From assembly GCF_003790525.1 (NCBI RefSeq), contig NZ_CP033635.1: 64,000 nt of DNA; one strand, written 5' to 3'. The stretch comes from Escherichia coli. Lineage in GTDB: Bacteria; Pseudomonadota; Gammaproteobacteria; Enterobacterales; Enterobacteriaceae. The translations under genes and the position numbers were made by a program. The notes beneath the pieces are model-generated. The model saw only the letters and a list, made by a program, of their open reading frames with translations. It ran no database searches and was not told the origin of the DNA. Within the stretch, counting starts at the first letter, position 1, and the number at the start of each line of letters is the position of its first letter. Below, in pieces: positions 35,964-37,460 of the stretch.

Positions 35964-36090
35964 TCATTTGAAGTATGATAAATAGTCGCAGTATTTTAAT
36001 TTAATTTCATACTTGCTTATGAATATTACCAGGAAATAGCCACATTACTATTTAATTATCTGAGATAAACTCAACGTCAAGAGGTGGGTT

Positions 36091-37092
36091 ATGATTAGAT
36101 ATAGTGGAATATTTCTATCGCTGTTAATGCTTTCAGGTTGTGCAACCGAAGCATTGAAGAATGAACAAGCTGAAACTGTTATTACTGCGGGTAACAAGGC
36201 GGTTGCGGCGAATGCAAGTTTCTTTAAACAATACTATGCTTCTCGTGAAAACTTCCTTGTTAATTTCTATGCAACTAATCCGGATTGTGCACTGCGACCT
36301 GATTATACCATAGATATAGGCGGTGATGGTAATGGCGGAAAATTATGCCAGCGCCCTGGGCCAAATACAAAAAAAGTACAATTAGTCCCTTTCGAGAAAG
36401 AAAAATTACTGGCTTCAATGGAAGTCATTAATAGCATGAGCGCTTATGTAGAACTTCTGACTGAGGACATGGCAACGACAGAAAGTCAGCAAGTGGCATT
36501 ACTTAAACAGGCTCTGGATCACGCAAACAACGCACAAACACTACTTGGTATTTCACATAGCAAAGATTTAGCACAATCTGCAGCAGCGGTTAAAGATTTG
36601 GTAAATTATTTCAATGAGTTATATATAATAAAAGTCAATTCTGGAAAAATAGGCAAAACGGTAGATGAAAACTGGGTAAGACTTATAGGGAACATGACAG
36701 TTTTGCGTAATGATATTTATACAAAAAGCAATAAGATTGAAAATTATACCTTTGCGAATGTGCATGATAATATGTTTTATTATAATACGGCATCTAAAAA
36801 CGCTAAGAATACAGAGTTTAACACTCTGAAAAACAGGAAGGAGTTTCTAAGTTCAGTAATCAATGTGAATGAAACCAGGCTACAGGCATCGGCACCTGCC
36901 ATGCCCGCAATTGAGGCTTTAAATGCCTTTATAGATAAGGGTGATTATCTGAATAATTTATATGTTAATAAAACACGCACGGCAGCTGAACAAAAAAGGT
37001 TAAATGAGATATTGCGCGCACAGGTCATTAGTGGGTTAAAGGCGTCTGAGGGGCTGGCAAAATTACTTATTGCCAGCGGAATAATGTTATAG
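36091..37092 (+). CDS. hypothetical lipoprotein (islet gene 1), predicted alpha-helical
   Basis: 333-aa ORF; lipobox LMLSGC; RBS gaggtgg; strongly AT-rich; no K-12 counterpart between rluB and btuR. Confidence 0.7.
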   Translation: MIRYSGIFLSLLMLSGCATEALKNEQAETVITAGNKAVAANASFFKQYYASRENFLVNFYATNPDCALRPDYTIDIGGDGNGGKLCQRPGPNTKKVQLVPFEKEKLLASMEVINSMSAYVELLTEDMATTESQQVALLKQALDHANNAQTLLGISHSKDLAQSAAAVKDLVNYFNELYIIKVNSGKIGKTVDENWVRLIGNMTVLRNDIYTKSNKIENYTFANVHDNMFYYNTASKNAKNTEFNTLKNRKEFLSSVINVNETRLQASAPAMPAIEALNAFIDKGDYLNNLYVNKTRTAAEQKRLNEILRAQVISGLKASEGLAKLLIASGIML

Positions 37093-37102
37093 GAGGCTTT
37101 TT

Positions 37103-37411
37103 ATGAACGATGTGCAAAATCGTAGAATACTGGCATTACTTGATATGCTGTATAATACCCTGGGCAATAAAACCACATGTAATGTTTGTCATAAATATTT
37201 TATCCATATCCTCACAGTTATGAACAACCTGACGATTAACTATGGTACTGAAACTTCGCCAGAGTTAGCAGGGATAAATTATGACGATGCTAATGCGCTA
37301 ATTACTGAACTGATATTATTTATTGAAGATGTTGACGCTGAGAATCATGAAACATATCAGAGACATTTCAATGAGATTATACGCATTCTGAATTTTGCTA
37401 TTGCCGCTTGA
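37103..37411 (+). CDS. hypothetical small protein (islet gene 2)
   Basis: 102-aa ORF 10 bp after gene 1 with RBS aggagg; AT-rich; no recognised family. Confidence 0.65.
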   Translation: MNDVQNRRILALLDMLYNTLGNKTTCNVCHKYFIHILTVMNNLTINYGTETSPELAGINYDDANALITELILFIEDVDAENHETYQRHFNEIIRILNFAIAA

Positions 37412-37425
37412 ATATAATTATGATT

Positions 37426-37460
37426 AAAGCACCTCAAGAGGCAATCTTTTGAGGTGCTTT
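37426..37460. terminator. bidirectional terminator shared by the islet and btuR
   Basis: aaagcacctcaagaggcaatcttttgaggtgcttt. Confidence 0.75.

Follow-up and report, generated by a model that had tools for sequence, protein, structure and literature searches.

A two-gene accessory islet with deep alleles between rluB and cobO of Escherichia coli: a candidate envelope conflict module

What is the role of two hypothetical genes that lie between rluB and btuR in some Escherichia coli strains and are missing from this junction in others? The question is raised by a 64-kb stretch of DNA (here called the window) that corresponds, with 100% identity, to the chromosome of E. coli SMS-3-5 (NC_010498.1), and in which an islet at positions 35966-37460 separates rluB from btuR, also named cobO. 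According to our analysis the islet represents an accessory cassette of two genes, old and self-contained, which encodes a lipoprotein of 333 amino acids and a partner protein of 102 amino acids. Among the functions weighed below we prefer that of an envelope conflict module protecting its carrier from phages, a reading to which we give a probability of roughly 0.35.

The genes flanking the islet are convergent: rluB is located at 35046-35921 and cobO/btuR at 37464-38054 on the minus strand. The interval between them holds only two open reading frames (ORFs), which are co-oriented, 10 nt apart, and labeled hypothetical proteins in RefSeq (WP_000622025.1 and WP_001000712.1). The lipoprotein gene, whose ORF starts with MIRYSGIFLSLLMLSGC, extends from 36091 to 37092 on the plus strand and is preceded by the Shine-Dalgarno sequence GAGGTG (36081-36086). 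The partner gene (37103-37411, plus strand) has the Shine-Dalgarno sequence AGGAGG at 37091-37096, where it overlaps the stop codon of the lipoprotein gene, so that the two genes are closely coupled. In all these respects, coordinates, ORFs, spacing and Shine-Dalgarno sites, the locus is exactly as described in the original prediction, which was made from the window sequence. A scan for terminators placed the left edge of the islet at the rluB terminator, a bidirectional hairpin with an 8-bp stem at 35941-35960. At the right edge, next to the end of cobO at 37464, an inverted repeat at 37426-37460 can form a hairpin with 15-nt arms and a 5-nt loop, and by its sequence this hairpin reads as a bidirectional terminator serving the gene pair as well as the convergent cobO/btuR gene. 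The AT-rich 5′ region of the islet (35961-36090, plus strand) is presumed to contain a weak promoter; no strong sigma-70 consensus was found on its plus strand.

The guanine plus cytosine (G+C) content of the islet is 36.3% (0.363), as compared to 50.7% (0.507) for the window and 0.49 and 0.51 for the 5-kb flanks. Windowed calculation confirmed its predicted AT-richness: among all 1495-nt segments of the 64-kb window the islet is the poorest in G+C (a fraction of 0.0008 has the same or a lower value). G+C at third codon positions is 0.32-0.33 in the islet genes and 0.46-0.49 in rluB and cobO. In K-12 strain MG1655, a spacer of 39 bp, with one hairpin and no gene, separates the ends of rluB and btuR, so that the synteny given for K-12 in the original prediction is correct. 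The sequence following the rluB stop codon in SMS-3-5 is unrelated to this spacer, and none of the 39 bp is retained. Because the K-12 spacer is wholly absent from SMS-3-5, the intergenic DNA was replaced and not interrupted. Neither terminal direct or inverted repeats bounding the islet nor Rfam elements within it were found; with no integrase either, nothing supports the view that the window copy arose from a mobile element. Of the horizontal acquisition that had been proposed, the foreign composition stands, but a recent or precise insertion of a mobile element does not, given the lack of an integrase, a tRNA gene and repeats and the presence of the islet at the same site in other taxa.

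Are the two ORFs genuine? The ratio omega of nonsynonymous (dN) to synonymous (dS) substitution rates is 0.05-0.25 for the lipoprotein gene (0.05-0.13 within allele class A, see below) and 0.05-0.5 for the small gene. Both ORFs are real genes, because they are under purifying selection; they are also conserved over their full length, full-length copies predominating in the protein clusters and being conserved in thousands of genomes. The 'hypothetical' annotation of both ORFs might be taken to mean that they are a non-functional remnant or an annotation artefact, chance ORFs in AT-rich junk. We consider this extremely improbable, as such ORFs would not be expected to show dN/dS values well under 1 at saturated dS, to be full-length in thousands of genomes, to have strong Shine-Dalgarno sites, or to encode an invariant lipobox plus cysteine pair and a partner protein whose structure is modeled with a predicted local distance difference test score (pLDDT) of 93.

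The distribution of the islet at the rluB-btuR junction was analyzed in 5426 complete E. coli genomes from RefSeq. The junction is polymorphic: it is empty and contiguous, of the K-12 type, in 4183 genomes (77%), and occupied in 1238 (23%), always by a single chromosomal copy at this site. The islet therefore combines atypical composition with presence/absence polymorphism, as genomic islands do. At least three allele classes exist. Class B, encoding proteins of 340 and 102 amino acids and present for instance in sequence type (ST) 131, accounts for 776 genomes, and class A and its relatives for the rest; class C (P0014) combines a middle region of its own with an A-like C-terminus and an A-like partner. 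ST95 and O157:H7 strains lack the pair. The same rluB-cobO site is occupied in E. whittamii, in E. albertii and in some Citrobacter strains. The E. whittamii copy has 98% protein identity to class A, a divergence similar to that of its flanks, the E. albertii copy is class-B-like, and the Citrobacter copies are 52% identical; among 100,044 GTDB species representatives the only carriers are E. whittamii and E. albertii. Therefore, from its location at the same junction in other taxa and the flank-like divergence in E. whittamii, sequence comparison indicates that the polymorphism, which concerns both the presence of the islet and its alleles, is old and is composed of a null state and several deep alleles. 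Homologous recombination between the conserved flanks is the probable route of its spread.

Several irregular copies were encountered. Two of them are natural knock-outs: in E. coli SCU-172 (locus 543-1240) an IS1 insertion has removed the start of the lipoprotein gene, and in the E. albertii type strain NBRC 107761 (locus 2898-3919) the lipoprotein ORF is split into parts of 244 and 96 amino acids by a frameshift or a sequencing error. A 455-bp 'spacer' between rluB and cobO of strain HS-02 (NZ_CP172818.1) was discarded as an allele: about 400 bp of it (locus 3040-3440) is near-pure poly-A, an assembly artefact in a 'complete' genome. Likewise, a 32%-identical 'third allele' on CP054249.1 ('plasmid pBone4_2', 33 kb) turned out to be a frameshift-ridden chromosomal trp-rluB-cobO fragment of allele B. 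The PLSDB entry NZ_CP134663.1 is a 4.9-Mb chromosome filed as a plasmid.

Comparison of classes A and B revealed where the alleles differ. Their lipoproteins are 64% and their partners 72% identical, and alleles A, B and C align from end to end. In a sliding comparison of A with B, identity stays at 94-100% between rluB and position ∼36300, drops to 42-80% up to 37460, and returns to 93-98% in cobO. The 5′ region of the islet is 98-100% identical between the two classes and dS equals 0 over the first 40 lipoprotein codons, the shared stretch consisting of the promoter region plus the first ∼70 codons; in agreement with this, megablast matches of allele-B genomes end at query position 406-407. 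The haplotypes thus differ by a 1.16-kb block (36300-37460, plus strand) that extends from about codon 72 of the lipoprotein gene to the downstream hairpin and thus takes in three quarters of the lipoprotein, at its C-terminal side, as well as the entire partner gene. Between classes the lipoprotein genes show a dN of ∼0.22-0.25 at a dS of ∼1.0-1.2, as compared to a dS of 0.07-0.24 in rluB and cobO. A conserved N-terminal part followed by a variable C-terminal part that changes as a block with an adjacent small gene is the arrangement of polymorphic toxin-immunity loci; neither a recognisable toxin domain nor a non-homologous C-terminal swap between the alleles was found.

These population data also bear on the view that the pair is an ordinary envelope accessory operon, with a niche-specific structural, stress or transport function for the lipoprotein and a cytoplasmic helper dedicated to it. 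Such an operon would have been ancestral to Escherichia, most lineages having lost it since, and weak constraint and H-NS-silenced DNA would account for its AT-richness and divergence. The fixed, single-copy, chromosomal position in all Escherichia and Citrobacter carriers, the lack of mobility machinery, the purifying selection, and the lack of a defence or toxin domain are all in line with this view, as is the fact that inactivation is sometimes tolerated (the IS1 insertion, and the split ORF in E. albertii). However, a dS of ∼1 within one species, where the flanks have 0.07-0.24, is hard to obtain from relaxed constraint alone; moreover, only very few and scattered Proteobacteria have the family, and both a prophage and an integrase island carry it (see below). 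On balance we consider an ordinary operon unlikely.

The lipoprotein has a signal peptide encoded by codons 1-16, its N-terminus reading MIR-YSGIFLSLLM-LSGC. The window protein matches the lipobox pattern [LVI][ASTVI][GAS]C of Lgt, LspA and Lnt substrates; the proposed lipobox LSGC was thus borne out, with Cys17 (36139-36141) as its cysteine. The residue at position +2 is Ala (CATE), and no member of the family has Asp at this position, from which the E. coli +2 rule predicts sorting to the outer membrane via Lol. An alignment of 37 family sequences has four invariant columns, Cys17, Cys66, Cys86 and Tyr119. The lipobox and the cysteine pair are kept down to 15-25% identity, and in 30 of the 37 members the mature protein contains exactly three cysteines (as counted by regular expression). 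No transmembrane segment was detected in the mature lipoprotein of any of the 37, and modeling predicts that it is all-helical. Together these features fit an exported, disulfide-bonded lipoprotein that would be sorted to the outer membrane. Cys66 and Cys86 bracket a variable loop, and this loop, presumably bounded by a disulfide, is the fastest-evolving part of the lipoprotein (dN 0.47, omega 0.3-0.5).

A fast-evolving loop would be in line with antigenic variation as the source of the alleles, and prophage morons often encode surface lipoproteins that interact with the host. The pair could accordingly be thought to act in serum or complement resistance or in adhesion, as a surface lipoprotein of the lysogenic-conversion type comparable to lambda Bor/Iss or TraT, the more so as allele B occurs in ST131 and allele A in other human and animal isolates. 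Such factors, however, need no conserved cytoplasmic partner; pairs are present in Methylomonas, a Chlorobiaceae metagenome-assembled genome (MAG), Pantoea, and soil and other metagenomes, which have no animal host; and the pair is missing from ST95 and O157:H7. A role in host interaction is therefore distinctly improbable in our opinion.

The partner protein of 102 amino acids is acidic (isoelectric point, pI, 4.8) and has no signal peptide. Its model is a four-helix bundle predicted with high confidence (pLDDT 93), and a Foldseek search with this model against PDB and AFDB50 returned nothing below E = 0.5; the bundle is a generic one. Residues C26, C29, H30 and H88 are invariant in all 13 enteric partner sequences (C-x2-C-H ... 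H88) and, judged by this pattern, may form a site for Zn or another metal; C26-H30 can also be read as a CXXCH motif, yet the partner has no export signal. A twin-arginine or other signal was considered for R7 and R8 and rejected, these residues being located within helix 1 of the confident bundle and unconserved in distant partners. The distant partners retain at most one cysteine. Among 13 small partners, eleven have an acidic pI (4.3-5.3), as do many binders of the inhibitor or immunity type. RefSeq names one 102-amino-acid variant of the partner (WP_001000713.1, from E. coli 2009C-3133, locus 1504-1812) an 'amino acid kinase family protein'. This label is probably an annotation error, being implausible for a four-helix bundle of 102 amino acids without a Pfam match.

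To what family does the pair belong? A word-indexed search of 5.8 billion proteins yielded members from Escherichia and Citrobacter only. When 1.84 billion representatives were searched exhaustively with a profile, 55 proteins of the lipoprotein family were recovered, whose full-length members have 324-357 amino acids; the named hosts are Buttiauxella, Raoultella, Klebsiella, Rahnella, Pantoea, Methylomonas and the Chlorobiaceae MAG, and every member is annotated as hypothetical. The most regular trait of the family is its pairing: in nine of the ten other lineages examined, an ORF of 96-108 amino acids is present within 1-25 nt 3′ of the lipoprotein gene; these include Citrobacter, Raoultella/Klebsiella, Buttiauxella, Pantoea, Methylomonas, and high-GC lineages from soil and metagenomes. 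In the tenth, represented by metagenome contig SRR32865914_98274 (locus 2171-2980), the downstream ORF encodes 269 amino acids, of which the first ∼110 align with the small partners and the C-terminal half (∼150 amino acids) contains several hydrophobic, transmembrane-like segments. Taken as a 'Rosetta stone', this fusion hints that the inner membrane is where the partner acts. When the 5.8 billion proteins were searched with a profile of the small partners, pair-linked members only were retrieved. The partners are fast-evolving, identity between those of different lineages being 8-26%, and homology between the enteric and the distant partners was not detected by hhalign (probability 2%); what links them is their position, size, mostly acidic charge, and similar first and last helices. 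A conserved third component was considered and dismissed, the neighbours of 413-431 amino acids at three loci being mutually unrelated.

Some of the distant pairs are located in mobile surroundings. In Buttiauxella agrestis, the pair forms an insert of 34-39% G+C in a P2-like prophage of 60% G+C, between tail-completion gene S and baseplate gene V. P2-like phages have three known moron regions, among them the S-V junction, and orf30 of P2 itself, which gives this slot its name, is 261 bp long (PMC6823313). In Raoultella ornithinolytica (DBIIEH010000028.1) the pair is present in an AT-rich island together with two AlpA genes, a P4-type integrase and a transposase. The same island also encodes an FRG-domain protein that matches PADLOC candidate PDC-S15 (E = 2e-52), a weak AbiC-like protein and HicB (locus 5412-6344 and 14890-15558), and it may be a satellite or an integrative defence island. 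The Methylomonas pair adjoins VapBC, Fic and a Y1 transposase; the Pantoea pair adjoins an H-NS paralogue, and neither defence genes nor a mobile-element hotspot are co-located with it.

The cassette shares with the morons of P2-like prophages that it is compact and AT-rich and represents non-essential cargo with its own terminator, and the Buttiauxella pair, itself an AT-rich insert, sits exactly in the orf30 slot. Unlike these morons, however, the window copy is located outside a prophage, and no relative was found among the sequenced phages or in the IMG/VR scans. A second likeness concerns T5 Llp, Cor of phi80 and N15, lambda Bor/Iss, and TraT, which are accessory or lysogenic-conversion lipoproteins of the outer membrane that act at the envelope. 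These differ from the window pair in being small single-gene functions without a cytoplasmic partner, and no PHROG or Pfam similarity of the pair extends past the signal peptide.

The original prediction recognised no family for either protein, and library searches returned no meaningful match in Pfam, NCBIfam, PADLOC, PHROGs or PDB. Thus, Pfam-A gave no match for the two window proteins or for any of the 37 family members, NCBIfam gave nothing meaningful for either protein, and the sequence-profile search of PDB produced coiled-coil noise only. Literature searches by accession, gene neighbours and concept found no description of these genes. Both protein families lie outside every library tried and the architecture is unlike any described system, and judged by their sequences they would therefore be new.

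The model of the lipoprotein is of low confidence (mean pLDDT 49.5). Its resemblance to a ClyA-like fold is a weak, low-confidence lead, since long helical bundles match each other easily. Aligned with E. coli ClyA by hhalign, the family profile reached a probability of 0.1%, and no profile similarity to the HlyE/HBL families was found for the window protein or the 37 members. A hydrophobic beta-tongue or head in the middle of the sequence is absent: the mid-region (residues 218-267) is hydrophilic, and the maximum Kyte-Doolittle score over 19 residues, 1.12, is at the C-terminus. A few bona fide components of the ClyA superfamily also lack a hydrophobic head (PMC8617504). Compared to members of this superfamily (MakE/MakA/MakB, Hbl-B, NheA, AhlB, Cry6Aa), which are secreted and soluble and consist of two or three paralogous components, the window protein is predicted to be lipid-anchored and is encoded by a single gene with a small partner; it has neither their profile similarity nor a hydrophobic head, and its model is of low confidence.

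The ClyA lead and the colicin-like pattern of divergence would fit an effector-immunity pair that serves bacteria in competing with each other, in which a membrane-active, ClyA-like lipoprotein on the outer membrane or on vesicles would be matched by a small acidic neutraliser or chaperone in the producer cell, with colicin-like diversification of alleles. Myxobacterial SitA is a lipoprotein toxin with a cytoplasmic immunity protein, SitI. As in E-type colicin/Im and SitA/SitI pairs, the N-terminal part of the window protein is conserved and the C-terminal part has diverged with the adjacent small acidic gene. In contrast to them, the window pair has no recognisable toxin domain, its alleles are homologous throughout and not only outside swapped toxin domains, and no outer-membrane exchange, lysis gene or secretion system is linked to it. 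Besides this lack of a toxin signature and of a linked delivery system, a cytoplasmic immunity protein would be mismatched with an exported toxin acting on membranes, and omega is 0.1-0.5 throughout. The structural lead itself is undermined by the poor model (mean pLDDT 49.5), by the lack of a ClyA/HBL profile signal and of a hydrophobic head, and by the position of the predicted hairpin, which comes after helix 1 and not in mid-chain. An effector-immunity pair is therefore doubtful.

We favour a conflict function because the pair is rare, patchy and AT-rich, has an obligate partner, shows deep alleles confined to two putatively interacting parts as well as presence/absence polymorphism, and is occasionally carried in the moron slot of a prophage and in an island that also has defence-type genes. 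The toxin-immunity, exclusion or defence role suggested in the original prediction is thus a credible candidate. As an envelope module protecting against phages, it could work as follows. After processing by Sec, Lgt and LspA, the lipoprotein would pass to the outer membrane, in keeping with Ala at +2, and the mature protein would be an elongated helical bundle stabilised by a disulfide. From the periplasm or outer membrane it would exclude phages or block their entry. The small protein would be a specific cytoplasmic binder that holds or regulates the precursor before export, or else it would act in sensing. We infer only, from the features described, the localisation, the interaction between the two proteins, the anti-phage activity and the fold of the lipoprotein.

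Several observations weigh against a protective role. Neither protein was found to be homologous to phage-resistance factors. PADLOC-DB v2.0 returned nothing for both window proteins and allele B at E ≤ 1, nor for four distant pairs and the fusion protein at E ≤ 0.1; PHROGs likewise gave nothing for the window or the distant pairs, its best E-values for the window pair being 0.006-0.15, with several of the matches spanning the signal peptide only. In tblastn of 50,697 phage records and in four IMG/VR scans no relative was found, nor were copies found on genuine plasmids in the plasmid collections. Phage carriage is an exception, represented by one prophage, and the argument from genomic neighbours draws on two or three loci. 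At the Escherichia site the surroundings are housekeeping genes, with no defence neighbours and no known defence hotspot, and mobility machinery is lacking, there being only the two ORFs, and neither an integrase nor a tRNA gene, from rluB to cobO. Finally, a cytoplasmic partner cannot touch the lipoprotein once this is exported, which makes the coupling step speculative, and the exclusion lipoproteins described so far (Cor, Llp) are of small size and are not known to require a partner in the cytoplasm.

A more specific form of the envelope conflict module, which is possible but which we put forward tentatively, is that the pair represents a new class, composed of a ClyA-like helical lipoprotein effector in the outer membrane and a fast-evolving cognate four-helix partner. 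Several ancient specificities, including that of pandemic ST131, would be kept in Escherichia by balancing or frequency-dependent selection, blocks would be exchanged by homologous recombination with occasional carriage by prophages and islands, and the outcome would be allele-specific phage exclusion or killing and immunity.

Two other features of the window, apart from the islet, deserve mention. A second accessory patch of low G+C, at ∼14870-18620 on the minus strand (NC_010498.1 1903990-1907735), adjoins yciI and contains a fragment of an SOS-response-associated-peptidase pseudogene, a gene for an 'LTA synthase family protein' (∼16457-17944), a DinI-like gene, and fragments of a tail-fibre domain and of a transposase; the patch has the appearance of a prophage or island remnant. 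At ∼22913-23418 (NC_010498.1 1899188-1899693), within the yciGFE-ompW stretch, which is the window's other low-GC segment, the annotation of SMS-3-5 gives yciE as a pseudogene with a frameshift.

Even if the lipoprotein is an ordinary envelope protein, the islet provides a clear three-state polymorphism shared across species at a housekeeping junction. Since natural strains have either no islet or allele A, B or C at a single chromosomal site, isogenic tests are simple. If the pair is indeed a conflict module, it would be a system of defence or competition whose two proteins belong to families without described relatives, and one that acts from the outer membrane, a compartment with very few known defence systems. 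The pair is carried by about a quarter of the complete E. coli genomes in RefSeq, including ST131, and an allele-specific effect, if true, would bear on phage therapy and on the success of clones.

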